Shown in pieces: positions 5,409 to 22,774 of a stretch of 64,000 nucleotides of DNA. The stretch lies in sequence record NZ_CP090684.1; one strand, given 5' to 3'. The position numbers and the translations under genes are program-made. Under the pieces are notes generated by a model. That model was not told the origin of the DNA. It did not search any database and was given only the letters and a program-made list of their open reading frames with translations. Numbering within the stretch: the stretch's first letter is position 1; each line of letters begins with the position of its first letter. The DNA comes from a plasmid.

Positions 5409-5519
5409 CTACCCGCAAGCCTTCGATTCGAAGCATTCGCAACGCACGGCGAGCCGTCCATCGTCAAATTTCTTCACTTCGGCGGGCGTCGGCGCGCCGG
5501 GTGTTTCTACCTTGGTCAT
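5409..5519 (-). CDS. Small Cys-containing peptide (36 aa)
   Basis: ATG at 5519 with a GGAG RBS 8 nt upstream. Sequence MTKVETPGAPTPAEVKKFDDGRLAVRCECFESKACG. Confidence 0.3.
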   Translation of the reverse strand: MTKVETPGAPTPAEVKKFDDGRLAVRCECFESKACG

Positions 5520-5568
5520 AGTAACTCCGGGCTGTTGTGGCCCGCCGCAGCGGGCCGGATTGGCACAC

Positions 5569-5850
5569 TCAGCCGTGCACCGGGCAGGGGTTGCCGCTAT
5601 CGTTCTGGCAGTCGGGGCACTGCGAAACCGCGTCGCATTCTTCGGCCATCTGCTGCCCCCACTCCCACTCGGCGACCAGTTCCGGCACGTCCGCAAACAT
5701 CGTCGGCACGCTGTAGACCCCTGCCTGATAGTCGTAATACCCCTCGGCCTGCGCGTCGTACAGCGAGGCGATCACCAAATCCGATTGAGGGTCGACAATC
5801 GCTTTGATCTTTGCAAGCGCGTAGTTCACTCGAACATCCAAGCCACGCAT
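5569..5850 (-). CDS. Hypothetical protein (93 aa), acidic with a C-terminal CPDC..C motif
   Basis: ATG at 5850 preceded by an AGGAGA RBS. The GTG at 5868 is an alternative start. Confidence 0.45.
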   Translation of the reverse strand: MRGLDVRVNYALAKIKAIVDPQSDLVIASLYDAQAEGYYDYQAGVYSVPTMFADVPELVAEWEWGQQMAEECDAVSQCPDCQNDSGNPCPVHG

Positions 5851-5931
5851 TTTTATCTCCTGTATCACGTGTGGGTTCCGTCTCTTAAGTGATCGATAGC
5901 CCGGGCTGACCGGGGCGAACCTTCCGGGGCG

Positions 5932-6132
5932 TTACAGTGGCATCGGCGACCAAGCGCCGGGGGCGTGGCGGTACAGCGTGACGCGCTTGCGCTGGCCGTT
6001 CACCACCGTCTCCACGCGGACCGCGCGAACATCGTCTTCCTCGCGGCGCCACCGGTGCAGTACACGGATTTCCGCGTTCAGGTCACAGCCCAGAAAGAAA
6101 GCGGCGATGCGGCGAAGAAGATTCGATTTCAT
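5932..6132 (-). CDS. Small basic protein (66 aa), copy 1 of a duplicated gene
   Basis: GGAG RBS 7 nt upstream. The protein is identical to the product of 8738..8938. Confidence 0.5.
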   Translation of the reverse strand: MKSNLLRRIAAFFLGCDLNAEIRVLHRWRREEDDVRAVRVETVVNGQRKRVTLYRHAPGAWSPMPL

Positions 6133-6232
6133 GGTTGCTCCGTGCGGTTTAAGGGTTTCAGGCTGACCGGGACCCTAGATTCCGAGTCCCTTCGTAGGGT
6201 TTGTTTTAGCCCGACCGGCAGCTGCTTCTGTG

Positions 6233-6405
6233 CTGCCGCCAGTCCCCTGAGTTCGTCGTCCCGGCGACAAAGGAGCCCGTAGCCGCGCCCGGACAAGGGC
6301 GTGCCCGGAGGCCGCATGCGGAGCGCAGCCGCAGGCGAGCACCGAACGGGCGAGGACACGGCGAAGCGAACCCTTGGCCGGGCGCGGCGAAGGGCTACTG
6401 TCGCG
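6233..6405 (+). promoter_or_regulatory. Frpo/ssi-like structured element, copy A; candidate single-stranded-DNA promoter
   Basis: Conserved block ctgccgcc...cccctgagttcgtcgtccc.gcgac. Hairpin arms gcgcccggacaaggg (6285-6299) and cccttggccgggcgc (6371-6385). -35-like TTGGCC at 6374-6379, a 16-nt spacer, then -10-like TACTGT at 6396-6401, followed by gtcgcg. The promoter points away from the downstream minus-strand gene. Confidence 0.5.
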
Positions 6406-6655
6406 AAAAGGGACGGCGGACTCAGGGGACTGGCGACGGCGTGTCCGCGCGAGAGGGCAAAAACGCCGCGCGGCGAGCGCCCTTCATGCGGCCGCAGGCC
6501 GCATCACTTCAGGGGTGAATGTCCGAAAGGGCCGAAGGCCCTTTTCGGCTCCCGCGCAAGCGGGCATATCGCTAATCATGCCGCTTGGCGGCACTAGATG
6601 GCGGCGCTGCTTCGTCTACAGCGAAGCGAAGAAAAAGGCCCTTTCGGGCCTTACG

Positions 6656-6847
6656 TCAGAAACCGGTCTGCTCCCAATGCGCGCGTATTAGAAGGTACTC
6701 CCGCAGCCCGGTGCAACGTCCGTCAACGATGCCTCCACGGCGCACTCTCACCCACCCGTGTCCCATGATCGAAAGCAGCCCTCCGGTGCACTGGTGGATG
6801 GCGACAATGCAGAGTTCGACGGTATTTGCGCTGTCCGCTGTCTTCAT
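6656..6847 (-). CDS. Hypothetical small protein (64 aa)
   Basis: ORF directly downstream of 6844..7113. It ends where repeat copy A begins. Confidence 0.3.
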   Translation of the reverse strand: MKTADSANTVELCIVAIHQCTGGLLSIMGHGWVRVRRGGIVDGRCTGLREYLLIRAHWEQTGF

Positions 6848-7113
6848 ACCTCGGTGCCTCCGATCCACTCCTTACCGATAAAGACATCTGCGCCGAAGGC
6901 GTCGATCACACACTCGCACGCACGCGGACTGCCGAGCAGACCGACAAGCCGCTCTATCGTCCACGCACCGTCTGCGGGCACTTCGAGCAATACTGAGCCT
7001 CCGAGGTCGCGGAGAATTAGCGGCGGGACCGCATCCGTGCTTTCGGCGCTCACGGTCAGCAGACTGTCCTTGGCGGGAACGATTTTTACACCGCAGCGAG
7101 TCGGATAAATCAC
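6844..7113 (-). CDS. Hypothetical protein (89 aa)
   Basis: ORF in a co-oriented minus-strand operon. Confidence 0.4.
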   Translation of the reverse strand: MIYPTRCGVKIVPAKDSLLTVSAESTDAVPPLILRDLGGSVLLEVPADGAWTIERLVGLLGSPRACECVIDAFGADVFIGKEWIGGTEV

Positions 7114-7122
7114 CTGATTCTC

Positions 7123-7305
7123 CTAGTAACCTAGCCAGTCGAGCACTTCCTTACCCTCATACTCCGGGCGATCGCCAACCTCGGCGAGAAAGGCAGAAAA
7201 GCCGCCTTCGACATCGTGGCGTCCAATTTCGGCCTCGGCTTCAGCACGCGTTACTGTCATATCGCATGCGTCTTCGTAGGTGTATGCGGTCATTCCAATC
7301 TCCAT
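7123..7305 (-). CDS. Hypothetical acidic protein (about 60-85 aa)
   Basis: ORF 7123..7380. The internal ATG at 7305 avoids overlap with the upstream gene. Confidence 0.35.
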   Translation of the reverse strand: MEIGMTAYTYEDACDMTVTRAEAEAEIGRHDVEGGFSAFLAEVGDRPEYEGKEVLDWLGY

Positions 7306-7868
7306 CAGTAAAGCTGCTGGGTCGTTCGCCTGATCCAGTTCCTCGCGACAGCTCCATATGCGTTCAGAGCGAGTCGCCATGCAGGCGCATTCAGGGCGAA
7401 CAGCAGATAGCGGTGCGCAGTCGGGTCGATGCCTCCAGTACGTCCGATATTCATAAGCGCGTGCGCAGCGACGAGCGGCGGAACGTCGCTTTCAGCATAT
7501 TCGGCGTCGAACTGCTCCTGTGTCATCCACTGTGTTACGACGCGTCCACGTTCGACCGCAAGTACCTGCGTCGTGGCGCGCGTCTGGTGGCTGTAGCCGA
7601 AGGACAAGCGGATCGCCGGGTTCTCGTTAGCGTCCAGGTACACCGAGCTGCGCGTAGTCGGACGCGCCGGGTCGGTTCCGGTGAGCTGGCATTCGGGCGC
7701 GTCCGGTTCACGGTTGAAGGGCTCAACGGTTGGAATGATATGCGCCTTTGTCCGGACACGGTTACCCGTTTCGGCGTGTGCATAGTGGACGAATTCCAGC
7801 GTATAGGAACGTCCGGCGCGGTCGATGTCGGCGTAGTGCTCGCGGGTGATGGTGCATGGAATTTGCAT
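7305..7868 (-). CDS. Hypothetical protein (187 aa)
   Basis: ORF. No recognisable motif. Confidence 0.45.
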   Translation of the reverse strand: MQIPCTITREHYADIDRAGRSYTLEFVHYAHAETGNRVRTKAHIIPTVEPFNREPDAPECQLTGTDPARPTTRSSVYLDANENPAIRLSFGYSHQTRATTQVLAVERGRVVTQWMTQEQFDAEYAESDVPPLVAAHALMNIGRTGGIDPTAHRYLLFALNAPAWRLALNAYGAVARNWIRRTTQQLY

Positions 7869-7877
7869 GATGGTCTC

Positions 7878-8078
7878 TCAATTCTCGCGGGCGTCGAGCG
7901 CGCCCTGCAGCGCGACGGCCTGGAATGCGTTCAGGCCGGCGGCGTCGATGAACGTTTCGCGGTTGAAAATCATCACCGCGTAAACGTTGGCAAGCTCGCG
8001 CGCCTCGGCGCAAAGCGTGGGGCATTCGTTCGTGCCTTCCGGGGCCGGTGACGTGCGCGCCAGATATTGATTGCGCAC
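7878..8078 (-). CDS. Hypothetical protein (66 aa)
   Basis: ORF in the operon. Confidence 0.35.
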   Translation of the reverse strand: MRNQYLARTSPAPEGTNECPTLCAEARELANVYAVMIFNRETFIDAAGLNAFQAVALQGALDAREN

Positions 8079-8161
8079 TCGATCTGCTCAATAGTGGTTA
8101 GCGACATGGCTCAGCCCCTTTCTTCCGAATTTTTGATATCCAGTGGTTTCACGTCGCGCCT

Positions 8162-8671
8162 TCAAAATCCGATCTGGCTCCAGTGAGTCACCATCTGCTT
8201 GTATTCACCGCGCTTCGCCCGAAGCCAACGAAGCATTCGCGCGACTGCGGCTCGCCTCCGCGCGACTTGTCGGAGCGCATGCGGACCGCCGCAACAGAGA
8301 TCCTCCTCTTCATCGCGTTGACTGGTTGCCTCATTAAGATAGCCTGCTGCGATCGCTCGAAGCGCCGCGTTTCCCCGTGCATGAATCGCAACCAAGTCGA
8401 ACTCTTTCCAAGGATCCTCCACCTGAAAGGCACGGGCGTACTCCGCTAGGAGCGCCCCGACGAAACTCCACTTACCTCTACGCAAGTACTTGCAAGCCAA
8501 GTCGTATGCAGACGGTCGATGGCTGGCTATGCCAATCGCTTGCTCGAGCTCGAGGTACAGCATGTGCAATCCAGGATATTGAAATCGATCTGGAACGGCC
8601 CTTTTCCTGCCATACGGTTTGAACTGGAAGCTGAGGGCATCCACCGCGTCGTGGTTCTCGATATGCGTCAT
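8162..8671 (-). CDS. Hypothetical protein (169 aa)
   Basis: ORF. First large gene after the duplicated 66-aa gene, copy 2. Confidence 0.45.
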   Translation of the reverse strand: MTHIENHDAVDALSFQFKPYGRKRAVPDRFQYPGLHMLYLELEQAIGIASHRPSAYDLACKYLRRGKWSFVGALLAEYARAFQVEDPWKEFDLVAIHARGNAALRAIAAGYLNEATSQRDEEEDLCCGGPHALRQVARRRAAVARMLRWLRAKRGEYKQMVTHWSQIGF

Positions 8672-8737
8672 GGGCGACTCCTATTCATCGTTAGGTTGGA
8701 CGGCCCCGATCGCTCAGGGCACGCTTCGAGTTACCTT

Positions 8738-8938
8738 TTAGAGTGGCATCGGCGACCAAGCGCCGGGGGCGTGGCGGTACAGCGTGACGCGCTTGCGCTG
8801 GCCGTTCACCACCGTCTCCACGCGGACCGCGCGAACATCGTCTTCCTCGCGGCGCCACCGGTGCAGTACACGGATTTCCGCGTTCAGGTCACAGCCCAGA
8901 AAGAAAGCGGCGATGCGGCGAAGAAGATTCGATTTCAT
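8738..8938 (-). CDS. Small basic protein (66 aa), copy 2 of the duplicated gene
   Basis: Identical protein to 5932..6132. Sits inside a near-identical block of about 560 bp (8733-9290 versus 5925-6480). Confidence 0.5.
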   Translation of the reverse strand: MKSNLLRRIAAFFLGCDLNAEIRVLHRWRREEDDVRAVRVETVVNGQRKRVTLYRHAPGAWSPMPL

Positions 8939-9038
8939 GGTTGCTCCGTGCGGTTTAAGGGTTTCAGGCTGACCGGGACCCTAGATTCCGAGTCCCCTCG
9001 TAGGGTTTGTTTCTGCCCGACCGGCAGCTGCTTCTGTG

Positions 9039-9211
9039 CTGCCGCCAGTCCCCTGAGTTCGTCGTCCCGGCGACAAAGGAGCCCGTAGCCGCGGCCGGAC
9101 AAGGGCGTGCCCGGAGGCCGCATGCGGAGCGCAGCCGCAGGCGAGCACCGAACGGGCGAGGACACGGCGAAGCGAACCCTTGGCCGGGCGCGGCGAAGGG
9201 CTACTGTCGCG
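9039..9211 (+). promoter_or_regulatory. Frpo/ssi-like structured element, copy B
   Basis: Near-identical to copy A. -35-like TTGGCC at 9180-9185, a 16-nt spacer, then TACTGT at 9202-9207. Confidence 0.5.
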
Positions 9212-9498
9212 GAAAGGGACGGCGAACTCAGGGGGCTGGCGAAGGGCGCTGCACACCGCGCGAGGGCAGAAACGCCGCGCGGCGAGCGCCCACAAGCGGC
9301 CGTAGGCCGCTTCACTTCAGGCGTTCGGGAGAAAGGGGCTCAGCCCCTTTCGTCCGGCGAAGCCGGGCCACGGACACGTGTGGTCCGACCACATGAGATC
9401 AGGGGCGATTTCGCCTTGGGTCCATTGCAGCGCTACGGTGCGAATTGCCGCGTTTCCACCGCAGGCGCCTCGAGATCGCTTGGCGAGCTGGAGTGCAC

Positions 9499-10110
9499 CT
9501 AGCGCACTTGATCGAGCGGTCGGCATTGCGCCAGCCTTGACCGAAAGTGCTGCTCGAAGGCTTCCGCCAATACCGGGTCATTCCATGCGATCACCACGTT
9601 CTCGCTGTTCGATTTTGCGCCCGCCGCGGTGTAGTTGATGCTTCCAGTCTGGACGCTCCGGTGGTCCAGTATCATTGCCTTGTCGTGCATTAAGCGATAT
9701 CGGTCCACGACGCATATGGCAGCACCGGCGCGCGCGAGATAGTCGAGCCCGCGGCGGATGTAGCCATCTCGATCGTTCGCGATGCTTTCGCCATAGTCAA
9801 CGGCGATTGCAACGGGGACCCCCGCTCGTGCCTTCGCTGCCAGCGCCTCGATTAGCGGCCGATACGTCATTACGTACGCCAGGACGTGAATGGAACGATG
9901 CGCCGAACCCACGCCGTACAAGACGAGATCCATCCCCTTACCGTCCGGAGAAAAAGCATATGAGGTCACACGACCCTCGGGGGCTGCGGTCGTGAGCACC
10001 GTTGCGACGCTCGCGACTGGCGAGGCAAATGCCGCCAACGCGATCGCAAGCTCGGCAATACATCCGGCGATCACTGCGGGGGCTGTCCATGACAGCAGCT
10101 TTAGTGTCAT
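9499..10110 (-). CDS. Phospholipase-D-family endonuclease (Nuc-like, HKD motif) with an N-terminal signal/TM segment
   Basis: The run HDKAMILD followed by ...GSINYT fits the HxK..D..GSxN signature of PLD/Nuc nucleases such as pKM101 Nuc. Start MTLKLL at 10110 overlaps the upstream stop. Confidence 0.7.
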   Translation of the reverse strand: MTLKLLSWTAPAVIAGCIAELAIALAAFASPVASVATVLTTAAPEGRVTSYAFSPDGKGMDLVLYGVGSAHRSIHVLAYVMTYRPLIEALAAKARAGVPVAIAVDYGESIANDRDGYIRRGLDYLARAGAAICVVDRYRLMHDKAMILDHRSVQTGSINYTAAGAKSNSENVVIAWNDPVLAEAFEQHFRSRLAQCRPLDQVR

Positions 10111-10580
10111 GTCCGCGCGCTCCCCGAAGTAACCGGCCGGAGCCGTGCGACCGGGGGAAACTGATTCGCCGGGATGACGCGTCCAACGCTCACGTGTGTC
10201 TGGCAGCGATCGGCCTGCGTCGTCACGTAAACCCACGTCGCCGGATCGAGCGAAAACCGCGAGGTGACGATGCCCCCCTCGGCGATCGCCAGTTGATTCG
10301 CAAGATGCTCAGTCGACGGGAGCTCCGACCAATCTCCGATCGCGTGCCGAATGACGAACTCCATCTCACGGCGATCAAGTGACGCGAGCACCGCTCGAGC
10401 GGCTGTCGACATTTTGATGCTACCGGTCTCAACGATTGGGTGAAGAGGAAGCGCCTGCGCCACCTCACCGCGACCACTGACTAGATAACAATGCCATTCC
10501 GGCAGGAGGTCTCCAACGAGGGCGCGGGCTTGCAGCTGCTGACTGCTATCGAGCTCGAAAAAATAACGGATTGTGGGCAT
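10107..10580 (-). CDS. Hypothetical protein (157 aa)
   Basis: ORF sitting between the primase and the nuclease in the same operon. Confidence 0.45.
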   Translation of the reverse strand: MPTIRYFFELDSSQQLQARALVGDLLPEWHCYLVSGRGEVAQALPLHPIVETGSIKMSTAARAVLASLDRREMEFVIRHAIGDWSELPSTEHLANQLAIAEGGIVTSRFSLDPATWVYVTTQADRCQTHVSVGRVIPANQFPPVARLRPVTSGSART

Positions 10581-10583
10581 AGG

Positions 10584-12155
10584 TCACCGTTCAGTGGCGT
10601 TGGTCGATACAAGTTCCCTTGGCAGCATCACCCTGACCTGCTCCCGCACGGCCGCCAAACCTTCGGCGCTTGCGAGGTCATTGAAATCGGTCGGACGCCC
10701 GACGAGGGAGTTGAATACAGGCACGATCGCCTGGCATCTGAGGATCCGTGCTGCTTCGGCGGCTGAGTCGACACCTCTGTTGGACGTCGTGGACCGGACA
10801 TGCTTTCCGTCGCTCCCCGTGATCACATCAACGGTCACAGAACGAGCAACCCCGCAGCGGCATTCCACCGCAAGCCGGTACTTTCCGTGTGCGCTCGCAT
10901 GCCATTGCCCGTCCGCGATCGCATCGACGATTCTCACGGTTCGAGTCGCGTCCCGGGGTCCCGCGTTGACCTTGAAAGAGCATTCGGTCTCAGGCGCCAC
11001 GCTACCTAGTTCGGCAATCCGCGTGACGGCTGTCTCAAGAAAAAACTGGTCGTTGTCGGCGCAAACGAGCTTCGGTTGCCGCCGCGGCAGGACGTGCACG
11101 AGGTCTTTCGCAACCGCAACGAGGTTGCCTGCGTCGAAGCACACAACCACCGGTAGGCCCGTCGCTTCGTAAATCGACGCTCCCGTTGCGTACCCTTCCG
11201 AGAGCAGCACCGCCGGCGCGCTTACGAGGTCAGCGACACGTCGCGCGCCGATCAGGTGAAAGGCACCGGTCTTTCGCGCTCCCTTCGTGAATAGCTTGCT
11301 TCCGTCGGGACCGAGCGCCTGGACAGTTCGCAGCCGGTCTTGAATATCCCGTCCGGGAGCGATCAAGTATTCGTCGGATGTCGACTTGAAGTGCTCCAGG
11401 TTCAGCAGGGTAATCATGTCCATACCCCGGCCGCTCGCAATCCGGAGACCGTGCGCGGCTACCCCTTTGCGGGCCAAATACGGGTGCGCGTCACATTCGA
11501 CTTCCGGCAGGGTCACGAGCACCTTTAATGCCCTCGCCGCTATCTCGCGCTGCTCCTCGATCACCTTTGCAGCGCGCGCCGCACGGCGATCGCTATCGGC
11601 CGCCTCGAGTGCGGCGCGTTGCTCGCGTGTCAGGCGTCCCTTCTGAAAGCGCCACGGGCCAGATGCCCCCTTAAAATTTCGGATGTAACCCCGCCACTCC
11701 CCACCAACACGCTCGAGCTTGTAGCTTCCGCTGTTGCGTGGTCCGGCCGGCGTTTCGACTTTGGCCGTATGCCAGGCTCCATCCGCACGTACGGTGTCGG
11801 GGATAAGCCCAAAGGTACGCATCGCGAGGCTGAAGTCCGCGATCGCTTCCTCTGGGTCAATGCCGGCATTCGCAAGCACGGTCTCATCGACGATCCACTC
11901 GGCAAAAGGCGTCCGATCCATCGACGCGTCGATCCAGCAAAGGCGCCGATCGTAATCGAGATGCGCCCCGAGAGACCGAGCCTTCGGAATGTCTCTGGGG
12001 GGTACCGCAAGGTAAATTCGCTGCGCTTGCGATGCGTTGGACTTGATGTTTCCTTGCTGCCGTGACGATTTTCCCTGCGGAACTGAGGCGAGAAAGCGCT
12101 CAACGGCCCTGGCCTGCCCACTAGTCGAACGTTTTGCCATGGTTGTGCTGTACAT
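10584..12155 (-). CDS. DNA primase, Toprim-domain (conjugative TraC-type)
   Basis: 523 aa. The segment LSEGYATGASIYEATGLPVVVCFDAGNL is a Toprim acidic motif. N-terminal domain resembles the DUF5710 found in ICE/plasmid primases. Strong AAAGGAGGTG RBS 6 nt upstream of the ATG at 12155. Confidence 0.7.
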   Translation of the reverse strand: MYSTTMAKRSTSGQARAVERFLASVPQGKSSRQQGNIKSNASQAQRIYLAVPPRDIPKARSLGAHLDYDRRLCWIDASMDRTPFAEWIVDETVLANAGIDPEEAIADFSLAMRTFGLIPDTVRADGAWHTAKVETPAGPRNSGSYKLERVGGEWRGYIRNFKGASGPWRFQKGRLTREQRAALEAADSDRRAARAAKVIEEQREIAARALKVLVTLPEVECDAHPYLARKGVAAHGLRIASGRGMDMITLLNLEHFKSTSDEYLIAPGRDIQDRLRTVQALGPDGSKLFTKGARKTGAFHLIGARRVADLVSAPAVLLSEGYATGASIYEATGLPVVVCFDAGNLVAVAKDLVHVLPRRQPKLVCADNDQFFLETAVTRIAELGSVAPETECSFKVNAGPRDATRTVRIVDAIADGQWHASAHGKYRLAVECRCGVARSVTVDVITGSDGKHVRSTTSNRGVDSAAEAARILRCQAIVPVFNSLVGRPTDFNDLASAEGLAAVREQVRVMLPRELVSTNATER

Positions 12156-12367
12156 GAGACACCTCCTTTCTCAGAGGCGGATCGCGTCGAGCGGCAGGCA
12201 GCCGACCACAACGGTCAGCGCCGCTGCATGAAATTCTTTGCTTATCCCCTGCCCCGAAACCTTCCCGTTGCGTACCATCGCGTTCTCCGTTGGTTTTGAG
12301 CCGACCGGAACCCAAGATTCTGAGTCCCGGCGTACCGGCCGAGTCGACGCAGCGCTACCCGCAGCTG

Positions 12368-12523
12368 CTGCCGCCGTTCCCCTGAGTTCCTCGTCCCGCG
12401 AACTAGTCAGGTGAGGTGACCCGTCGGTCAAGGGGGCAAGCGAGGGGATAGGGGCGGGCAGTCGCGTAGCGACAACACGGCCCCGAGCGCCTTGACCGAC
12501 GGGCCGCCGAACCTACGGTCGCG
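12368..12523 (+). promoter_or_regulatory. Frpo/ssi-like structured element, copy C
   Basis: Perfect 14-bp stem: cccgtcggtcaagg (12420-12433) with ccttgaccgacggg (12490-12503). -35-like TTGACC at 12492-12497, a 16-nt spacer, then TACGGT at 12514-12519, then gtcgcg. Confidence 0.5.
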
Positions 12524-12652
12524 CGCAAGGACGAGGACAAAGGGGGGGACGGAGCTGCAGGGCAGGAATACCGGAGGCTCGGCGCCGCGCGGCGAGCGCC
12601 CATCGCGCGAAGCGCGACGCGACAGCGCGTCCGGATGGACGAAGAGCGAAGC

Positions 12653-12679
12653 GAAAAAAAAGCCCCGCTGGTGCGGGGC
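12653..12679 (-). terminator. Rho-independent terminator (minus strand) downstream of the 188-aa gene
   Basis: On the minus strand: hairpin gccccgc-accagc-ggggc followed by TTTTTTTT. Confidence 0.55.
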
Positions 12680-12957
12680 AAAACATGCTGCTTCCGAGGG
12701 CACGGCACGAGCAAACCGCAGCATGCTAAGAGCAGGAAAGAGCGAAGGTGAGCCTTTCCGGGAGCGCAGCGAGCGGCCGGCGAGGCGCTGGCAGCCCCGC
12801 CCGAAGGGCGCGGGGCGAGACTCCGCAGGAGGCTCGACGCTTAGGCCGCGCATCGCGCGGACGTAGCGCAACATAGCCGGTCTTTGCGGAGCAAAGACGC
12901 CCCAAGTGAATTCTTCGCATACCTCCTCAATTCGGTTACGTAAGCCAAGAGTGGCGT

Positions 12958-13524: not shown

Positions 13525-13554
13525 GCATTAATTTCGTCCCGCTGGCGGGACGGT

Positions 13555-13590
13555 GGATAAATTTTAATCACCTTTGCACATGATTGCAAT
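13555..13590 (-). promoter_or_regulatory. Conventional sigma70-like promoter for the 12958..13524 gene
   Basis: On the minus strand: TTGCAA, a 17-nt spacer, then TAAAAT, followed by the palindrome gtcccgc-cag-cgggac ahead of the ATG. Confidence 0.4.
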
Positions 13591-13629
13591 TGATATGTAT
13601 GGAGCGGTTCACGCCCGAGGGAGGGGGAT

Positions 13630-16082: not shown

Positions 16083-16188
16083 AGCATTCCTCAAAATTAA
16101 CATTGAAGTTGTGACGGGACCGCCGGGCCCCAAGATTCTGAGTCCCGGCGTAAGCCGTTCTGTCGAGTCGGCGGGCCGCGCTCCGCAG

Positions 16189-16344
16189 CTGCCGCCGTTC
16201 CCCTGAGTTCGTCGTCCCGCGACGATCGGAGCGAGGACCAGTGCATCGTCAAGGGGTGACGCGCGGGTCGGTGCGGGAGGGAGCGCAGCGACTGACACGG
16301 TCCCGCGCGCCCTTGACGTTGCGCTGGCCGCAGCTACAGTCGCG
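16189..16344 (+). promoter_or_regulatory. Frpo/ssi-like structured element, copy D
   Basis: Stem cgtcaagggg (about 16245) pairs with cccttgacg (about 16309). -35-like TTGACG at 16313-16318, a 16-nt spacer, then TACAGT at 16335-16340, followed by gtcgcgg pairing with the upstream ccgcgac. Confidence 0.5.
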
Positions 16345-16731
16345 GAGGTGGACGGCGAACGAGGGGGACGGAGATGAAGGCAGCACCCGTACCACGACGA
16401 GCCAGAACGCCCCGCGCGGCGAGCGCGCTATCCGAGCGGCGCGACGTCAGGAGCGCCGAGAGGCTGGAGGGATGGCCCGCGCCGGGGCAAGTCCGCGGGA
16501 CGCGGCGCAGCCCCAAGAGCGGAAGTGTTTGGTCTCCGGGCCGCCGCGTGCGCGGCTTGCGTGTCGGCCGGTAGTGCCGGCCGGCGCGCAAGGTGCGGCG
16601 GCCCGGCTGGCTTCCGGGCCCAGGTCCACCGTCAGTGCAGCGTCGGTAGGTCCGCGCCTTCTTCCGTTCCCACGCCCCACGAGAATTCGGCCAATACGTA
16701 TGGGGCGAGCGTCGCGCTCGCCCAACGATAG

Positions 16732-16923
16732 TTACGCGCTTTGCTCAGTGCGATCTCGGTTCTGCACGTGTTTCGTGATCGCGCGTCGCGCGCTAACTAA
16801 TGTCCTGCGGCGCTCTAGATCGAAACCTCCATCATTCCGCATGATCTGTGTTTGGACTGTCTCAACTCCCCGCTCGATCGAGACATGGATGAAATGCCCC
16901 TTGTAGCCAATGGTGTGAAACAT
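16732..16923 (-). CDS. Hypothetical small protein (63 aa)
   Basis: ORF whose start is adjacent to the stop of the 117-aa gene. Confidence 0.3.
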   Translation of the reverse strand: MFHTIGYKGHFIHVSIERGVETVQTQIMRNDGGFDLERRRTLVSARRAITKHVQNRDRTEQSA

Positions 16924-16924
16924 A

Positions 16925-17278
16925 TCAGACCACCTCAGAGACAGGGAAACCGGCTTCAGTGAGCTCACGGCGCGCATCGTCATCCCAGGTCGTCGGCGAC
17001 TCGGACTCACAGCGATACGCGTAGGCGATTGCCGCTTCGCGTGCGTCGGCCGACAGACCGCCGGTTACTTTGACCACGACCTCCCAGTATGTCCCGAAGT
17101 CGTGGGCGCTGCTCTTGATGAACAGGCTGGCACCGTCGGGGGGTTCGCCCAAGGTGCGCCTGATTTGGTTGATGAAGGCCGTGCATTCGGCTCGGCTACG
17201 CTCCAGGTAGCGCATGTCGCCCACTTGCGCACATGCCTCATCACATGGCGCTGGTCCAATCTCAATCGTTTCCACCAT
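16925..17278 (-). CDS. Hypothetical acidic protein (117 aa)
   Basis: AGGAGAG RBS 8 nt upstream of the ATG at 17278. Acidic composition. Confidence 0.5.
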   Translation of the reverse strand: MVETIEIGPAPCDEACAQVGDMRYLERSRAECTAFINQIRRTLGEPPDGASLFIKSSAHDFGTYWEVVVKVTGGLSADAREAAIAYAYRCESESPTTWDDDARRELTEAGFPVSEVV

Positions 17279-17374
17279 CGTACAGCTCTCCTAAAAAATA
17301 TAGACTGACCGGGCCCCAAGATTCTGAGTCCCGGCGTGAAAGGTTCTGGCGAGTCGGCGGGCCGCGCTTCGCAG

Positions 17375-17532
17375 CTGCCGCCGTTCCCCTGAGTTCGTCG
17401 TCCCGCGACGCCTCGAGCGACGAGCCGGCGACGCGTCAAGGAGTCAAGCGCGGGGTGGGCGCGGGAGGGAGCGCAGTGACCGACACGGACCCCGCGCGCC
17501 TTGACGCGGCAGAGGCCGACGCTACGGTCGCG
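17375..17532 (+). promoter_or_regulatory. Frpo/ssi-like structured element, copy E
   Basis: Stem cgcgtcaagg (17433-17442) pairs with ccttgacgcg (17499-17508). -35-like TTGACG at 17501-17506, a 16-nt spacer, then TACGGT at 17523-17528. Outer stem cccgcgac pairs with gtcgcggg. Confidence 0.5.
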
Positions 17533-17911
17533 GGGAATGGACGACGAACGAGGGGGACGGGGGTGCGGACAGTGCTTGCTCCGTGACGAGCCGGAACGCC
17601 CGCGCGGCGAGCGCGCTATCCGAGCCGGCGCGACGCGAGGAGCGCCGCGAGGCTGGAGGGATGGCCCGCGCCGGGGCAAGTCCGCGGCACGCGGCGCAGC
17701 CCCAAGAGCGGAAGTGTCCGGATTCCGGGCCGCCGCGTGCGCAGCTTACGTGCCGGCCGGCAGCGCCGGCCGGCGCGGAAGGCGCTGCCCGGCGGCCCGC
17801 ATGTCACCGGCGATCCCGGTCGAGGACTCGGATCGCCGTCCCTGCCAATTGCGGTCCGATGGCGGTCCCATGGAGTGCGGTCGAGCGAGTTGAAGCTCAT
17901 GAAGATGACGG

Positions 17912-18325
17912 CTACCCGTCCCCCTGCTGCCCGCTTCGGCGGGCCTGGGTAGTGCGCGCAGGAGTTCGACACACGCGGTGGGCATCCATAGATCCATCGA
18001 ACGCCGCGGGTGGATCGCTCACTCGGCGTCCGAAGTCAACAATGGCGCGGTCAACGTTCGACACGAAGAATTCAACAGCAATTGCCTGAACAGTCGGAGC
18101 AAGCACGCCCGCGTTCGGGTAAAGCCGGTCGAGCGTCGCCATTTGGCGGAGGACCAGTCTGCTAATGTCTTTCCACGTTCTGTGGGGAGCACGTTGCCAC
18201 GCGTATAAGGCGTCAGTAACGATCGTGTTGAGGATGATGCGAATTTGTGCGTTCCGAACGCGGTTCGATGTGGCAAGCGGCCACTCTCGCGGCAACGTCA
18301 CGGAATACAAGTTGGATTCCTTCAT
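17912..18325 (-). CDS. Hypothetical protein (137 aa)
   Basis: ORF. Confidence 0.4.
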   Translation of the reverse strand: MKESNLYSVTLPREWPLATSNRVRNAQIRIILNTIVTDALYAWQRAPHRTWKDISRLVLRQMATLDRLYPNAGVLAPTVQAIAVEFFVSNVDRAIVDFGRRVSDPPAAFDGSMDAHRVCRTPARTTQARRSGQQGDG

Positions 18326-18384
18326 GATGGATTGCGTGACGCGGACACCGGATTGAGTGCCCGCGTCCGATCAGTTTTTTCAGT

Positions 18385-18918
18385 TTAGAGGTCCGCCCAT
18401 GCAACGTCGGCTTTCGTTTCCACTTCGCCGCCGAACATATGCTCGACCTGATACCGCACGCGCGCACGTGCACCGTCGATCACAAGCGTTCCGCGACCAA
18501 AGTAGCGGCCCAGCAGAGCTCGTTGTTCTTCCGCCCGGAGCTTGCCGCGCCACTTACCGTTGCAGTTCCCGATGCGATTTACGAGGAATAGGCGCAGTTT
18601 CGCTGCCTGTTCGTGCTGGTTCGGCGGCGGCGTCAGCACAAGCACGCCGTCCCGGTCAATCGGCGCGAGGTTTGTGTCTCGGTAGGTGCGCTTGTATTGG
18701 GTTGGGCCGATAGCCAGCCCCCAATCGACCGTATGCTGAATCCGTTGCCGTGCCTCTGATGAAGAGCGGGCAACCACCGAATCGTATGCGCGGCCGGCGC
18801 GCGACTTCCGGATATTGAAGAACGGGACACCCGGTCGCGATTCGAATCGTTCGACGTCGATTTGATAGTGGCCATGCTTGCCACCACCCTCCCATCGCTC
18901 AACTAGTTGCGCAGTCAT
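18385..18918 (-). CDS. Hypothetical protein (177 aa)
   Basis: ORF. Confidence 0.45.
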   Translation of the reverse strand: MTAQLVERWEGGGKHGHYQIDVERFESRPGVPFFNIRKSRAGRAYDSVVARSSSEARQRIQHTVDWGLAIGPTQYKRTYRDTNLAPIDRDGVLVLTPPPNQHEQAAKLRLFLVNRIGNCNGKWRGKLRAEEQRALLGRYFGRGTLVIDGARARVRYQVEHMFGGEVETKADVAWADL

Positions 18919-19418
18919 GCTGCCTCCACACGACGGCCGAACAGCATCAGTGCGACTGCTTCGAGGCGTGCTGCTGTATCGATAAGGACGCCATCGTCGT
19001 CGGCAAGCACGGTGATGTAGCTGGATTCGCCGCGTGGACGACCAGCCGCATCTCGCGCAACGTGTACTACACTGACGCCGGCCGCCTGCAGCCCGCGCCG
19101 GGCATATTCCGCAAAGGTGTCTGCCTCGCCGTGCTCCCTTTCAACCCTTCGCATACGCTGCTGAATGCGTTCGATCTTGCGGACGGCAGCGCGCAATTCG
19201 CCCAATTCCGGGGTGAGACTGTTCAACACGACGCGATGGCCGAATGCCACTGCATGGTCGCGACTGACGAAGGCGCGAAGCTCAATCGTCCCCGAATACT
19301 CGTACCCCACCGCACTGACCACCGCGCGTTGAATCTCAACGACGAGTTCAGTAACGTTGTGGTCCCGTTCGACGTACAGCATGGCATGCAGTTGGGGTTT
19401 CGTTGCGCGTCGTGTCAT
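18915..19418 (-). CDS. Hypothetical protein (168 aa)
   Basis: Start MTRRATKPQLHAM at 19418. The longer ORF that runs into the repeat is rejected. Confidence 0.45.
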   Translation of the reverse strand: MTRRATKPQLHAMLYVERDHNVTELVVEIQRAVVSAVGYEYSGTIELRAFVSRDHAVAFGHRVVLNSLTPELGELRAAVRKIERIQQRMRRVEREHGEADTFAEYARRGLQAAGVSVVHVARDAAGRPRGESSYITVLADDDGVLIDTAARLEAVALMLFGRRVEAA

Positions 19419-19511
19419 TGCATAGCTCCGTGGATGTTTGCTGACCGGGCCCCAAGATTCGGAGCCCTTCGTAGGGGTTTCCTTTCGGCGGACGCTGATT
19501 GGGTCGCAGCG

Positions 19512-19667
19512 TTGCCGCCGTTCCCCTGAGTTCATCGCCCTGCGACTCCGGAAGTTCGAGGAGGCGTCGCGTCAAGGAGGCAAGGGCGGGGGCGGTGCGG
19601 GACGAAGCGCAGCGAAGGACACGGCCCCGCACGCCTTGACGCGAGGCTGACGAGGACTACGGTCGCA
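19512..19667 (+). promoter_or_regulatory. Frpo/ssi-like structured element, copy F
   Basis: Stem gcgtcaagg pairs with ccttgacgc. -35-like TTGACG at 19636-19641, a 16-nt spacer, then TACGGT at 19658-19663. The outer stem here is ctgcgac with gtcgcag, a compensatory change relative to ccgcgac/gtcgcgg in copies D, E and G. Confidence 0.5.
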
Positions 19668-20196
19668 GAACTGGGCGATGACGGGGAACGGTGCGTAACG
19701 CGTGACCTGCGATCGCGCGAAAGGCCCGCGCGGGTAGCGCCTGTTCGCGCAGCGAAGCGGAGCGACTGGAATGGGCGGCAAGCGCCGGGCGAAGCCCTGG
19801 AGCGTTCAGTTTGTTTCCCGGTCCGTGGCGAGTTTCCTCGCCACGGATCCGGCTCGATGCCGACAGCTTTACCGCTGAAAGGCCTGATATTGGGCAGCAA
19901 CGACCACTTAGGTCGCGCGTGTGGCGCTATGGTCGCCCCCGATCCCCCGACGCGTACTCCGAAATCGAGGGGGCGACCGCGCAAACCGCCCTCCTCTCGC
20001 GCTTTCGACGCTATTGGCGCCTGGTCCCGCATCGGCCCGATGCGACGAGCCGCAGCGAGTGCGAGTACCCTGCAATGGCAAAAAACCCCACAGCTCCGAC
20101 CGCGCGCACTTACGGGCGACCGTCGCTGCCGCCATCTCGGTGTTGTTTGACTGAAGGTGCTGGGCACGGACCTTGAGAATTCCAGCACTCGTTTGC

Positions 20197-21990
20197 TCAA
20201 AGCACGAACGGCAGGTCTGCTTGCGCACTGGAGGTCGTTGCCTTGTGTGCCCATGCAGTGCGCGCCGGCGACGGCAACGCCGCAAAACGCACCGCGCGGC
20301 GAAGCAGATCAGCAACGGCATAGTCGAGCGTTAGTCCAAGCCGATCTTTGAAATCTGTACGACGCGCGATCTCGTCGTGTTCTCGTTGCTGTGCTCGTGA
20401 CAATGTCAGCGTGCCATAGTTTAGGTACCAACGGTACCCAGCCGTGATGCCTCCAGGGAAGAATCCGGCATCATGCATTTCGACCAGGCGCTCGAATTCG
20501 AAGTCCAGGATCATCTCGGCCGATTCCTCGTCGACTTCGAACCGCTTACCGGTCGGCACCTCCCAAGTGGTTCGCCCGCCCTTGAGATGGTGAACTTTCC
20601 GAGCACATGGAGAGTCTTCAGTCAAAGCCTCGAACAGCGGATCTCGGAACCCTGTCCACTGATCCGCGGTGTCGTCCCAGTGCTCTCCGACATGCAGAAA
20701 CATAGGCTCCGGCATTGGCTGCGGCGCGACCGGCATAACGTCCGGAACATCGTATCGAACGCCGTTGCAGTAGATGTCACGATAGTCAGCCCATATCGCG
20801 AAGGGTGGTGCCAGGCCTTGAAGCGATTGCATAGCATCGACGGCAATCATCATCGTCAAGGGCAACGTTTGAAATTTGGGCCGCGATCCAGTGCGCTTTG
20901 CGCGGACCAGCTCGTCTCGGTCGATCGTCATCATGTACCGCACAAGCTCTCGCACAGTGGCCGCGTTGAATGTGTCCGGCTCTATGCAGATGTAGCCTTC
21001 TTTAATGGTACGACCGACCCAATTTCGGCGGGACCAGTCATACCGAATCGCACGGATGAACTTGTTGAGGCGGTTCAGTCCACTCGCATACGCGTAGCGA
21101 TCCTCATCAAATTTGATCATCTCTTCGAGCGATCGGTCTTCCGCCTGTTGGCACGTCCAACATCCTGTCCGCGCGTCGCAGTGCCCCCTGCGCTTCCGTT
21201 TTCCGGCCGACGCCTCTTCGAATGAGAGGTCTGAGACGATCGCGCAGCTGCTGTTGCCTGCGTGCGCATAGATTCGCGAGGTTTCTCGGAAGTCCGTGTA
21301 GGTAGACCGAAGACCTGACGTTACTTCGCCGATGTACTCCCAGACGTCCTCAGTCTCCCAGTCAGCGATCACACACAGCGTGAGGTCACCCTCGTCGTTG
21401 CGCACGGGTGTATCGGCACGATCGCCACGGGCTTGCATGCCGGCCTTCCGCTTCGCGCTTTCGGCAAACCTCGATCCGAGGCATACGACCGGCTCAGCAT
21501 ACCCCTGCTGCTTCGCAGCGCGCGCGAGTTGATTTCGGAACACTCTGGAAGGCTCGATCTTCAAGCTCACTGAGCAGTCCGAGTTCGTACCTGCATAGCT
21601 TGGGAGCGCTCGACCGCTGAGAATCGTGACCTGCCAAGAGGTGGCCAGTGACGGCGCGACCGTTTGCACGTGGACCCTGACGTTGTGCCGCTTTCCGTAC
21701 GCGTGCATTTTCGCCAACTCCCGCTGGGCGTGCGCTACGATCTCAGGCGACTCGACCCCGGTGTCAGCGGTAACGACGTAGACGACCGCCTCGCCTCCTT
21801 CTGCCGCGTGTCGACGGGCGGCTTCGAGAGTCAGCGCCGCTACGACGCCACTGTCCTTACCGGCGCTGAACTGGCAGATCGCGATACGGCGCTCGTGAAA
21901 TAGCCGCCGCAAGGCCGCGACGGCACGCTCTACTCGCTGATCAAGCGTCGGCCGTTGTTGAAGATGAGGAAACAAATCGATCGTTTGCAT
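20197..21990 (-). CDS. PAPS-reductase-like / PP-loop ATP-pyrophosphatase family protein (597 aa) with a CxxC segment
   Basis: The PP-loop SAGKDSGVVAAL is an SGGKDS-type motif. A later CWTC motif resembles DndC/IbrA-like enzymes that partner with ParB-like proteins. Confidence 0.65.
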   Translation of the reverse strand: MQTIDLFPHLQQRPTLDQRVERAVAALRRLFHERRIAICQFSAGKDSGVVAALTLEAARRHAAEGGEAVVYVVTADTGVESPEIVAHAQRELAKMHAYGKRHNVRVHVQTVAPSLATSWQVTILSGRALPSYAGTNSDCSVSLKIEPSRVFRNQLARAAKQQGYAEPVVCLGSRFAESAKRKAGMQARGDRADTPVRNDEGDLTLCVIADWETEDVWEYIGEVTSGLRSTYTDFRETSRIYAHAGNSSCAIVSDLSFEEASAGKRKRRGHCDARTGCWTCQQAEDRSLEEMIKFDEDRYAYASGLNRLNKFIRAIRYDWSRRNWVGRTIKEGYICIEPDTFNAATVRELVRYMMTIDRDELVRAKRTGSRPKFQTLPLTMMIAVDAMQSLQGLAPPFAIWADYRDIYCNGVRYDVPDVMPVAPQPMPEPMFLHVGEHWDDTADQWTGFRDPLFEALTEDSPCARKVHHLKGGRTTWEVPTGKRFEVDEESAEMILDFEFERLVEMHDAGFFPGGITAGYRWYLNYGTLTLSRAQQREHDEIARRTDFKDRLGLTLDYAVADLLRRAVRFAALPSPARTAWAHKATTSSAQADLPFVL

Positions 21991-22084
21991 GGCTGCTCTA
22001 TCCGCATGTTGGGTGGCGCCGGGCCCATAGATTCCGAGTCCCGGCGTAAGCCGTTCTGTCGAGTCGGCGGGGCCGCTGCTGCGC

Positions 22085-22238
22085 CTGCCGCCGTTCCCCT
22101 GAGTTCGTCGTCCCGCGACGATCGGAGCGAGGACCGGAGCAACGTCAAGGGCGACGCGCGGGGCGGTGCGGGATGGAGCGCAGCGACTGACACGGCCCCG
22201 CGCGCCTTGATGGTGCGCAGGCCGCAGCTACAGTCGCG
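22085..22238 (+). promoter_or_regulatory. Frpo/ssi-like structured element, copy G
   Basis: -35-like TTGATG at 22207-22212, a 16-nt spacer, then TACAGT at 22229-22234, then gtcgcgg. Stem caagg...gcgcgggg pairs with ccccgcgc...ccttg. Confidence 0.5.
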
Positions 22239-22404
22239 GAGATGGACGACGAATGAGGGGGAAGAAGGAGTCAGGGCGTGACGTCGCGCGAGACAGAACG
22301 CCGCGCGGCGAGCGCCCTTTCACGCGGCAAGCGCCAGCGGCGCCGCGTGACACAATTTCGGCCTTTTAGTGCGCAGGACGGTAGAACAGCGCACTCGTCA
22401 GATA

Positions 22405-22459
22405 CCGTCGCGCGGTACGGGTGGGGCTGGCGCACCGGTCCACCCGTACCGCGCGACGG
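22405..22459. repeat. Perfect 20-bp inverted repeat (ccgtcgcgcggtacgggtgg ... ccacccgtaccgcgcgacgg) with a 15-nt spacer
   Basis: Seen directly. It lies downstream of the 22484..22774 gene, at the distal end of repeat copy G. Confidence 0.6.
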
Positions 22460-22483
22460 CTGGTTCCTAACGCGGATCCGCGG

Positions 22484-22774
22484 CTAGAAGCGTCCGGCGA
22501 TCTTCGGTTCAATTACGGCGAAGAGCGCTGCCGACTGCTCGGCGTCGAGTCCGCTGGTAAGCGCGTAGTCGATGCAACGCAAAGCGACACGCTTCGCTTC
22601 CGCTTCGAGCGCACAAACGTCAAAGAGGCTGCAGATCATGTCGGGGTGCACGATAGACGCGAGTACGTCGAGTAGCGACTCATTGCGACTATCAATGCTG
22701 GCGTCTAGGACAGCCAAGGCGTCAACGAAGGGTTGTGGAAGCGTTCGGATCATGGCTGAAAAAAAGCCGGACAA
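22484..22774 (-). CDS. Hypothetical protein (96 aa)
   Basis: ORF. The last co-oriented gene before the AT-rich, G-tract and iteron region. Confidence 0.4.
   Translation of the reverse strand: MSGFFSAMIRTLPQPFVDALAVLDASIDSRNESLLDVLASIVHPDMICSLFDVCALEAEAKRVALRCIDYALTSGLDAEQSAALFAVIEPKIAGRF

Follow-up and report, generated by a model that had tools for sequence, protein, structure and literature searches.

What kind of gene set runs, all in one direction, between positions 5409 and 22774 of this plasmid, and how would it be expressed? The DNA analysed here, hereafter the window, is a stretch of 64,000 nucleotides from sequence record NZ_CP090684.1, and an earlier note had described this part of it as a conjugative leading region holding a PLD nuclease, a Toprim primase, a ParB-like nuclease-domain protein, a PAPS-reductase-like protein and about 20 small unknown proteins, all reading toward the origin of transfer (oriT). 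The set comprises roughly 22 genes, four recognisable ones and about 18 small open reading frames (ORFs), and is a genuine leading-region set of a known general kind. Its genes form seven units, each headed by an element of ~360 nt, and the folding, conservation and placement of these elements lead us to propose, with a probability of about 0.7, that they are Frpo-type single-strand promoters of a new sequence family heading the leading-region units.

An nhmmer search located exactly seven copies of the element in the window, all in + orientation and all inside 6140–22350; each ends 25–39 nt upstream of the first ATG of its gene block, and every ORF in 5409–22774 with a coding signature or a homologue lies on the − strand, in agreement with the earlier reading that all the genes point toward oriT. 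The earlier remark that the ParB-like and PAPS-reductase-like genes each have their own repeat element was thus true, and understated. Element E1 (6142–6516; 1.4e-80) heads genes for proteins of 66, 93 and 36 residues. E2 (8948–9322; 7e-77) heads a tightly packed series encoding proteins of 66 and 169 residues, a DUF3717 protein and proteins of 187, 56, 89 and 63 residues, with a terminator-like hairpin at its end (6652–6635, − strand). E3 (12279–12638; 2.4e-72) precedes the primase, a 157-residue protein and the Nuc-type nuclease, and E4 (16099–16464) precedes the ParB-like gene, which is followed by a strong terminator (an intrinsic terminator lies directly after the gene at 13777–13795, − strand). 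E5 (17286–17653; 1.9e-85) heads genes for proteins of 117 and 63 residues, E6 (19419–19771; 4.2e-78) for proteins of 167, 177 and 137 residues, and E7 (21994–22349; 2.9e-83) the DndC-like gene alone, as a monocistronic unit. The best match to the window is a plasmid of Burkholderia multivorans (NZ_CP048444; 97% identity) that is typed MOBF/MPF_F, and syntenic regions are found in B. pseudomallei pBPSE01 and Paraburkholderia dioscoreae pI; in three sister plasmids the same element family occurs 10, 11 and 10 times, always heading an operon. A wider blastn search found the element in 109 plasmids, 80 of them from Burkholderia and the rest from Mycetohabitans, Paraburkholderia, Pandoraea, Ralstonia, Pseudomonas and Delftia, and none of the matches listed overlapped an annotated feature. 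At the F and IncC loci examined, no copy of the family was present.

Each element folds as a long imperfect hairpin. In an alignment of 30 element copies scored against a 44-pair structure, with slid partners and 500 shuffles as controls, 89.2% of cells pair, compared with 32–46% when the partners are slid. Compensatory changes are present at 16 pairs; the cells affected number 96, whereas the slid controls never exceed 42, and none of the 500 shuffles reaches the observed values. These changes fall mostly in the spacer between two invariant boxes, the hexamers themselves being fixed: the right arm carries CCTTGAC(G), exactly 16 nt and TAnnnT in all 30 copies (in E4, TTGACG-N16-TACAGT at 16313–16340), and the −11 adenine of this −10 box lies within an internal loop. 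In the duplex, the sequence facing the genes is the complement of the left arm, which keeps the −35 but has the A2/T6 hexamer in only one of 30 copies; a promoter directed at the genes is thus formed by the folded + strand alone. Two further asymmetries bear on the strand. G·T wobbles outnumber A·C cells in the alignment (66 versus 20), and the + strand fold is the more stable one in 7/7 elements, with z-scores from −2.6 to −6.4 (E1, −6.2 for a DNA fold of −120.2 kcal/mol; E2, −6.4; E3, −2.6; E5, −3.1; E6, −4.1; E7, −4.6), which together indicate that the + strand is the strand selected to fold.

That this is also the strand that enters the recipient is suggested by the DNA to the left of the genes. 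The left end of the window encodes, on the − strand, the N-terminus of a TrwC/TraI-type (MOBF) relaxase (HETNRENEPQLHNH) and, at 1288–3315 on the same strand, a type IV coupling protein (T4CP). Between these genes and the first leading gene lies a non-coding block (4735–4882) that is near-invariant across four plasmids whose proteins are only 35–90% identical. It contains a candidate oriT (4770–4882, +) with nested inverted repeats at 4770–4809 and a further repeat pairing 4816–4829 with 4837–4850, followed by GCGGTGGGGCTTGT/TGG at 4865–4882 as the putative nic region. On the + strand, GCGGTGGGGCTTGT/TGG resembles the nic sequence of F, and the nic position is set by that likeness. Because the inverted repeat sits 5′ of nic on the + strand, we infer a nick in that strand near 4879 and transfer in the 5′ to 3′ direction, so that the DNA to the right of oriT would lead the way into the recipient. 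On this reading the genes of 5409–22774, lying on the − strand, all have the + strand as their template. The layout is that of the F plasmid, with leading genes reading toward oriT and tra genes away from it, and since it accompanies a near-invariant oriT-like block with inverted repeats, the assignment of 5409–22774 as the leading region of a MOBF/MPF_F conjugative plasmid of Burkholderia, as the earlier note had it, is well supported.

In F and ColIb-P9, hairpins of the transferred single strand act as promoters, named Frpo and ssi (PMC7736820; PMC11541004). The elements of the window share with them a position in the leading region, on what appears to be the transferred strand, upstream of the genes that it templates; a −35 and −10 inside the stem, the latter partly unpaired; and a predicted course of transcription out of the hairpin base into the genes. 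By analogy, the right arm of the folded + strand would supply the non-template −35 (TTGACG) and −10 (TAnnnT) at 16-nt spacing, and the left arm would supply the template strand, running straight into the genes. The host RNA polymerase could then read each unit off the entering strand ahead of second-strand synthesis, and the promoter would vanish on conversion to duplex. The hairpin transcripts may also prime complementary-strand synthesis, as with Frpo.

Several observations weigh against this proposal. The element profile gave no nhmmer match (E ≤ 1e-5) in the 50–68 kb part of F that holds its leading region, so that no sequence homology to F Frpo was found and the elements are either an analogue of Frpo or a relative too distant to detect. 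The −10 matches the consensus at only three to four of six positions, and the spacer measures 16 nt, not 17. The right arm, once in duplex form, has its promoter facing away from the genes, and that promoter could be active in its own right. An extra conserved block adjoining the ribosome-binding site stands without explanation. The nic site and the transferred strand are themselves inferred, and ssb, psiB, ardA and klcA were not found, either by Pfam searches of the ORFs or by tblastn against the F leading-region genes. Finally, a gene for a 188-residue protein (12958–13524, −) has a conventional promoter-like site and flanking terminators, so that not all genes here are hairpin-dependent. 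That gene appears to be a conventional unit embedded among hairpin-driven ones: a sigma-70-like promoter (13589–13561, −) lies upstream in an AT-richer stretch, and the terminators bracketing it are at 13795–13777 and at 12679–12662 (−), the latter a strong intrinsic terminator with seven G–C pairs followed by T8.

The elements might instead be ordinary duplex promoter/operator modules, their inverted repeats serving as repressor-binding sites. The precedent is the IncN plasmid pKM101, whose CUP elements are, in the account given in PMC6289460, repeated upstream sequences of the leading region bound by a repressor. Both there (Delver and Belogurov 1997, as related in PMC6289460) and here, several conserved upstream elements each head a leading-region unit, and the pKM101 group also carries Nuc, whose structure (1BYR) is the best match of the PLD protein of the window. 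An invariant block, CCGGGnCCCnAGATTCnGAGTCCCGG, adjoins the ribosome-binding site of each element and could be an operator, and the 66-residue basic protein that is always the first gene product after one element sub-type (E1 and E2) could be a regulator. CUP elements, however, are described in the same source as ArdK-binding duplex promoter regions, whereas the present elements preserve by compensatory change a hairpin of about 40 pairs, far beyond the needs of an operator, and offer a gene-directed −10 only in folded form, the duplex counterpart on the − strand keeping a −35 but lacking the A2/T6 hexamer in 29 of 30 copies. The wobble and stability asymmetries likewise favour folding of the + strand, and we consider the duplex explanation unlikely. 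The same asymmetries bear on the possibility that the hairpin acts in RNA, as a structure in the 5′ untranslated region or as an antisense RNA. What folds as a hairpin in DNA can likewise do so in a transcript, and weak matches to small-RNA-like Rfam families lie nearby at 12654–12745. Those matches are below threshold and fall on a terminator (a search of 3000–25000 at E ≤ 1 gave only three sub-threshold matches, two of them there), and no upstream promoter is apparent from which a hairpin would be transcribed in full toward the genes. The mRNA corresponds in sequence to the − strand; there, the 66 G·T wobbles turn into A·C mismatches and the folds are the less stable ones throughout. Preferential folding of the + strand thus argues against an RNA-level structure, and we attach very little weight to this explanation.

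A third view would take the elements for recombination or mobility sequences, such as attC-like cassette sites or MITE/REP-type repeats, with the promoter-like hexamers incidental. It has in its favour that the units bounded by elements vary among the sister plasmids (seven here as against 10–11) and that methyltransferase and DUF3560 modules are present in some and absent from others; attC sites, moreover, also act as folded single strands. Yet no integrase was found nearby, all copies have one orientation that is fixed relative to the genes, and within the 64-kb window the elements are confined to the leading region. In every aligned copy the −35, a spacer of exactly 16 nt and TAnnnT persist while the spacer sequence varies freely, which would be hard to reconcile with incidental hexamers, and a role in mobility seems highly improbable. 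Transcription from folded single-strand promoters thus remains our preferred account of the elements.

The sub-type represented by E1 and E2 has a longer apex and a weaker −35 (TTGGCC), and all four plasmids examined have two copies of its pairing with the 66-residue basic gene, pointing to a dosage effect or a regulatory role of the 66-residue protein. Between the hairpin base and the first start codon, all seven elements carry a near-invariant block, CCGGGnCCCnAGATTCnGAGTCCCGGCGT, located at 16121–16151 in E4 and with equivalents starting at 6165, 8971, 12303, 17307, 19443 and 22017. It contains a short inverted repeat, CCGGG..CCCGG, around two GANTC motifs (GAGTC in 27/30 copies) and could be an operator, a hairpin of the 5′ untranslated region or a methylation-sensitive site; beside these GANTC motifs we note that methyltransferase modules sit in the extra units of the sister plasmids. 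Such extra element-headed units, absent from this window, are found in NZ_CP048444 (139173–161953) and pI (92000–128000) and include a small MTS-type methyltransferase and a DUF3560 protein that in pI (651 residues) has an MTS methyltransferase domain as well. Between elements, it seems, units come and go, and one of them contains a copy of IS408. The duplex right-arm promoters of E1–E7 (for example 16313–16340, + strand) aim into the 3′ end of the neighbouring upstream unit, and antisense RNA made from them after complementary-strand synthesis could form a shut-off switch.

Expressing genes early, from the single strand as it arrives, is believed to be what lets plasmids pass host defences. 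To our knowledge, well-defined single-strand promoters are known almost only from enterobacterial plasmids, where they were found by similarity to Frpo. The elements described here would add an independent hairpin family in plasmids of Burkholderiales, including those of clinical B. multivorans, B. cenocepacia and B. pseudomallei, with a hairpin and promoter geometry backed by compensatory evolution in 30 copies. They would also mark which genes are 'early' (seven units here and 10–11 in the sister plasmids), which would narrow the candidates for establishment or anti-defence functions to a short, testable set in a genus with none characterised.

Compared with the leading region of F (Frpo; ssb–yfjA–yfjB/herB–psiB), the window has in common a MOBF relaxase, genes directed toward oriT and a full-length HerB homologue behind a hairpin promoter, which is predicted in the case of the window. 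The set departs from the F-type pattern in three ways. The first, which is structurally well supported, is a new family of Frpo-like hairpin promoters, GC-rich and without detectable similarity to those of F, in 7–11 homologous copies per plasmid. The usual ssb, psiB and ardA are absent among the ORFs searched: no Pfam match to ArdA, ArdB/KlcA, ArdC, PsiB, PsiA or SSB was obtained among the ORFs tested, no homologue of ssb, psiB or klcA was found here, and when all genes were compared by tblastn with the F leading region and an IncC array, only HerB and the DndC-like gene matched. As a third departure, the early genes would encode, among others, a primase, a nuclease that seems to be exported and a DndC-like enzyme standing alone.

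The four recognisable genes had been named correctly in the earlier note, and their identities can now be refined. The ParB-like protein (751 residues; 13827–16082, −), which consists of a ParB N-terminal domain, a helix-turn-helix domain and two C-terminal domains, aligns in BLASTP with YfjB/HerB of F at 29% identity over 669 columns (E = 5e-62), residues 24–666 of the query matching residues 29–647 of the 652 of YfjB. It also matches Spo0J (PDB code 1VZ0; E = 0.0013), PRTRC_parB (1.5e-9) and phrog_7783, which covers residues 32–660. At the motif positions given in PMC13370423, the CTP-binding Box II (GxxRxxA) reads GETRRQA, aligned with GGRRLAA, and the Box III glutamate lies in SEN, aligned with TEN. 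According to that 2026 preprint, which renames YfjB as HerB, the F protein is a zygotically induced, CTP-binding, ParB-like dimer with the architecture ParB N-terminal domain, helix-turn-helix, D3 and D4, the last a novel C-terminal dimerisation domain; it binds the recipient chromosome and reprograms host transcription, and its gene lies in the F leading region with Frpo1 and Frpo2 (PMC13370423). ParB-family proteins are the fifth commonest leading-region family in the survey of Samuel et al. 2024 (PMC11541004). On this comparison the 751-residue protein is best filed as a full-length, four-domain HerB homologue and not as a nuclease-domain partner of the PAPS-reductase-like gene; the ParB-like part of the earlier label stands, and its nuclease domain is without support. 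It would be the first HerB homologue placed outside Enterobacterales plasmids.

The PAPS-reductase-like protein (597 residues; 20197–21990, −) has an N-terminal PAPS-reductase/TtuA-like domain with conserved cysteines and a C-terminal half without a known fold. Its SAGKDS (residues 42–47) and CWTC (277–280) motifs are invariant in 39 homologues that are 34–90% identical; the invariant residues include Ser42, Gly44, Lys45, Asp46 and Ser47 and, all within the N-terminal domain, Cys139, Cys249, Cys271, Cys277 and Cys280. Pfam returns PAPS_reduct (4.4e-6), and over the N-terminal ~310 residues there are matches to DndC models (2e-32 to 2e-34), although the score against TIGR03183 (DndC), 112.6 bits, is far under the cut-off of 290.4. 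A confident AlphaFold model (pLDDT 87, pTM 0.86) gives the N-terminal domain a fold similar to those of APS/PAPS reductases and the Fe–S sulfurtransferases TtuA and LarE; nothing in the PDB matched the ~300-residue C-terminal half of the model. PLSDB contains 2648 plasmids with homologues, most of them conjugative; the IncC gene is part of an array, all of one direction, that also encodes a Dcm methyltransferase and a Toprim protein. The PAPS-reductase family is among the leading-region genes listed by Samuel et al. (PMC11541004), as is primase/helicase. With DndC, SspD and BrxP the protein thus shares the SxGKDS PP-loop, the conserved cysteines including CxxC, the similarity to hidden Markov models over its N-terminal part and a fold of the APS/PAPS reductase type. 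It differs from them in its score far below the family cut-off, its C-terminal half, the lack nearby of a DndD/SspC/BrxC-type NTPase, DndE or DndA, and in being a solitary gene of a plasmid-borne family. Phosphorothioation by Dnd, Ssp or BREX-4 needs a P-loop NTPase partner (PMC12914056), and among 23 gene products no real Walker A motif was found, the N-terminus of the primase giving one chance pattern match. A 774-residue ATPase near a homologue in a Cupriavidus plasmid was considered as a DndD-like partner and set aside: it is SbcC-like, its neighbour is SbcD-like (by a motif recognised by eye), and it has no homologue here.

Judged by homology and fold, the 597-residue protein is a stand-alone DndC-like PP-loop enzyme, probably Fe–S-dependent. 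Its substrate chemistry is a matter for conjecture, our best guess, held with low confidence, being a thiolation-type modification of nucleic acid. One might go further and suppose that the enzyme, made from the incoming single strand within minutes, thiolates or otherwise modifies the entering plasmid DNA (as a phosphorothioate or at a base), using sulfur-transfer proteins of the host and dispensing with a DndD-type partner. We regard this extension as doubtful; if true, DNA thiolation would be the sulfur counterpart of the single-strand-specific leading-region methyltransferases M.EcoGIX and M.BceJIII and, the family being present in 2648 plasmids with IncC among them, an anti-restriction chemistry both widespread and so far undescribed. 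In either case a widespread solitary DndC-like enzyme is flagged here as a leading-region gene. A distant homologue (38% identity) on a metagenome contig (8022–12007) adjoins a second PAPS_reduct gene and a DUF1643 gene, with a relaxase-like helicase and a T4CP gene near it; in some elements, members of this family may act together with a paralogue.

The earlier note had likened the ParB-like and PAPS-reductase-like proteins to DNA-acting pairs of the IbrA/IbrB or Dnd type; such a pair would form a modification module protecting the incoming plasmid. As in IbrA/IbrB, a PAPS-reductase-family and a ParB-family protein do lie on one mobile element, both genes share a leading region here and in two sister plasmids, and the DndC models match as described above. 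The two genes, however, are not adjacent: they are 4 kb apart in separate units, and in NZ_CP048444 IS408, DUF3560 and methyltransferase genes lie between them (the apparently much larger distance in that record is an artefact of its origin, the gene order being the same with extra modules inserted). Nor do their distributions co-vary: the leading region of F contains HerB and no DndC-like gene, a stretch of 36 kb analysed in pI likewise contains HerB only, and IncC and the Cupriavidus plasmid have the DndC-like gene without a ParB-like neighbour. Because HerB and the DndC-like gene are distributed independently, the pairing is not supported. Pfam found no DUF3440, which in the IbrA/IbrB arrangement accompanies PAPS_reduct in a protein encoded beside a short ParB-like one; no P-loop NTPase partner was found among the 23 gene products, the DndC score is well short of its cut-off, and the ParB-like protein is a 750-residue, four-domain protein of the HerB type. 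A functional pair is accordingly very improbable, and we prefer to treat the two proteins as a HerB homologue and a separate DndC-like enzyme.

The third unit contributes two further recognisable proteins. The Toprim primase (523 residues; 10584–12155, −) is of the TraC/Sog type and begins with a DUF5710 domain (27.2 bits); Toprim_3 scores 26.9 bits, just under its cut-off of 27.2, and the PHROG family 'DNA primase' matches at 4.4e-58, with the motif EGYATG and the acidic DxD in CADNDQ. By tblastn it is 25–30% identical to genes annotated as 'DNA primase TraC' or LPD7 (Sog-type) in 4239 plasmids, and only residues ~45–383 align with the TraC, LPD7 and zincin proteins. With RP4 TraC and ColIb-P9 Sog it has in common the Toprim primase domain and an EGYATA-type motif (EGYATG here); it differs in lacking their C-terminal LPD7, ArdC or zincin region, no Pfam domain for a transport/LPD7 or ArdC-like region having been found there. 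Synthesis of TraC and Sog takes place in the donor, and the proteins are then carried over to the recipient. The primase of the window, placed behind a leading-region hairpin, would be made in the recipient, where it could serve in priming the complementary strand. Between E3 and the primase start there is a possible 34-residue leader ORF with a ribosome-binding site (12173–12277, −), at whose place pBPSE01 has an annotated gene for 91 residues.

The PLD protein (203 residues; 9499–10110, −) is a Nuc-type endonuclease, matching PLDc_2 in Pfam (1.8e-18) and the structure of pKM101 Nuc (PDB code 1BYR; E = 1.1e-24), and has a single HKD motif, HxK..D..GSxN with HDK as its first part, that aligns with that of Nuc. 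Its N-terminus is a hydrophobic segment, MTLKLLSWTAPAVIAGCIAELAIALAAFASP. Nuc is periplasmic, and the enzyme encoded here is probably exported.

Genes were called from the pattern of G+C content at the three codon positions (GC1/GC2/GC3), homology and the ratio of nonsynonymous to synonymous substitution (dN/dS), GC3 alone having failed to discriminate at ~60% GC. In a comparison of 14 small ORFs with the sister plasmids, 13 had a homologue in at least one of them, and dN/dS was 0.05–0.29 in the ten with unsaturated synonymous sites, similar figures (0.05–0.24) being obtained for the four recognised genes. Most of the small ORFs thus appear to be real genes. The earlier count of about 20 small unknown proteins comes down to about 18, one of which (DUF3717) is frameshifted; that they are small and unfamiliar holds. 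Searches against Pfam, NCBIfam, PADLOC and PHROG matched them only to DUF3717 and one PHROG of unknown function, and to no defence or anti-defence family, ArdA and KlcA included; comparison with the F leading-region proteins gave no match either. The earlier suggestion that they include anti-restriction or anti-defence factors therefore survives for these proteins as candidates, for establishment or anti-defence, by position. They are restricted to this lineage: in word-indexed homologue searches, which covered two of them, the 177-residue protein had only 13 Burkholderiaceae relatives and the 157-residue protein eight.

The genes of the first two units (all −) begin with the 66-residue basic protein (Lys + Arg 13, Asp + Glu 7), whose two copies, first after E1 (5932–6132) and first after E2 (8738–8938), are identical, just as the earlier note had reported. 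The duplication extends over ~590 nt and includes the upstream element, two copies are present in each of four plasmids, and dN/dS against the sister plasmids is 0.06–0.11. In the first unit there follow an acidic protein of 93 residues (5569–5850; Lys + Arg 4, Asp + Glu 15; CPDC), with a coding signature, a ribosome-binding site and ATG, 100% identity in NZ_CP048444 and no family match, and, as the last gene, a 36-residue ORF (5409–5519) that is 92% identical in NZ_CP048444 and has no homologue in pBPSE01 or pI. The second unit continues with a 169-residue ORF (8162–8671), 98% identical in NZ_CP048444, with no family match and no homologue in pBPSE01 or pI at 1e-5. The DUF3717 gene (7878–8107; Pfam 7.1e-10 on the 3′ frame) is split over two frames by an apparent 1-nt indel near 8048 and is intact (76 residues) in NZ_CP048444, the frameshift being either a sequencing error or a sign of a recent pseudogene. 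Next come a 187-residue ORF (7305–7868) with homologues at 61% and 44% identity, dN/dS of 0.15–0.26 and no family match; a 56-residue acidic ORF (7123–7293) that matches phrog_25588 (unknown function; 2e-12) and is 82% identical in both sister plasmids (dN/dS 0.08); an 89-residue ORF (6844–7113), annotated in NZ_CP048444 and with 39% identical homologues in pBPSE01 and pI; and a 63-residue ORF (6656–6847; longest ORF start 6868) that is 70% identical to an annotated gene of pBPSE01 (dN/dS 0.10).

Between the primase and Nuc genes lies the 157-residue ORF (10107–10580, −); its eight homologues are all full-length at 157 residues and all from Burkholderia (dN/dS 0.16). The protein of the conventional unit, 188 residues long, has homologues at 33–36% identity (dN/dS 0.24). 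In the fifth unit (−), the acidic 117-residue ORF (16925–17278; Lys + Arg 11, Asp + Glu 21) is 63% identical in pI and has no family match, and in the 63-residue ORF (16732–16923; longest ORF start 17010) the conserved part, residues 30–83, is 59% identical to an annotated gene of pI. The sixth unit (−) comprises a 167-residue ORF (18915–19418) that is annotated at the same length in two sister plasmids (dN/dS 0.11–0.14) and whose stop overlaps the start of the 177-residue ORF (18385–18918), and a 137-residue ORF (17912–18325) with homologues at 55–57% identity (dN/dS 0.16–0.19). The C-terminal ~75 residues of the 177-residue protein form a widespread, unnamed small domain, for which a HMMER profile search gave 152 protein clusters, mostly stand-alone proteins of 80–110 residues with one copy inside a MuF-type phage head protein, and to which neither Pfam nor PHROG gives a name. 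Structure prediction, proposed in the earlier note for the small ORFs at large, was carried out for this protein, and the AlphaFold model (pLDDT 80, pTM 0.48) had no significant match in the PDB; the best matches, to WGR and PUR-alpha folds at E = 0.19, were not relied on. On the far side of E7, without an element of its own, is a 96-residue ORF (22484–22774, −) that is 64% identical in pBPSE01 (dN/dS 0.29).

Between the tra genes and the oriT-like block, a gene for 104 residues on the + strand (4429–4743) has no family match and keeps its position in all the sister plasmids; it may encode a relaxosome accessory protein. A second conserved non-coding block (5190–5320), between the oriT-like block and the first gene, contains three palindromes, CATTGC..GCAATG, GGCGCGCTAGCGCC and TTTGGAGCAA..TTGCTCCAAA, and a direct repeat, ATCTGGATAGCAGC, occurs at 5062 and 5310; together these may be sites for accessory proteins or a priming site. 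To the right of 22774, small − strand ORFs run on in one direction to ~28480 without further hairpin elements or Pfam matches, and this run ends, as it does in pBPSE01, at genes for an H-NS-like protein (28965–29444, +) and an SOS-response-associated peptidase (29579–30373, +).

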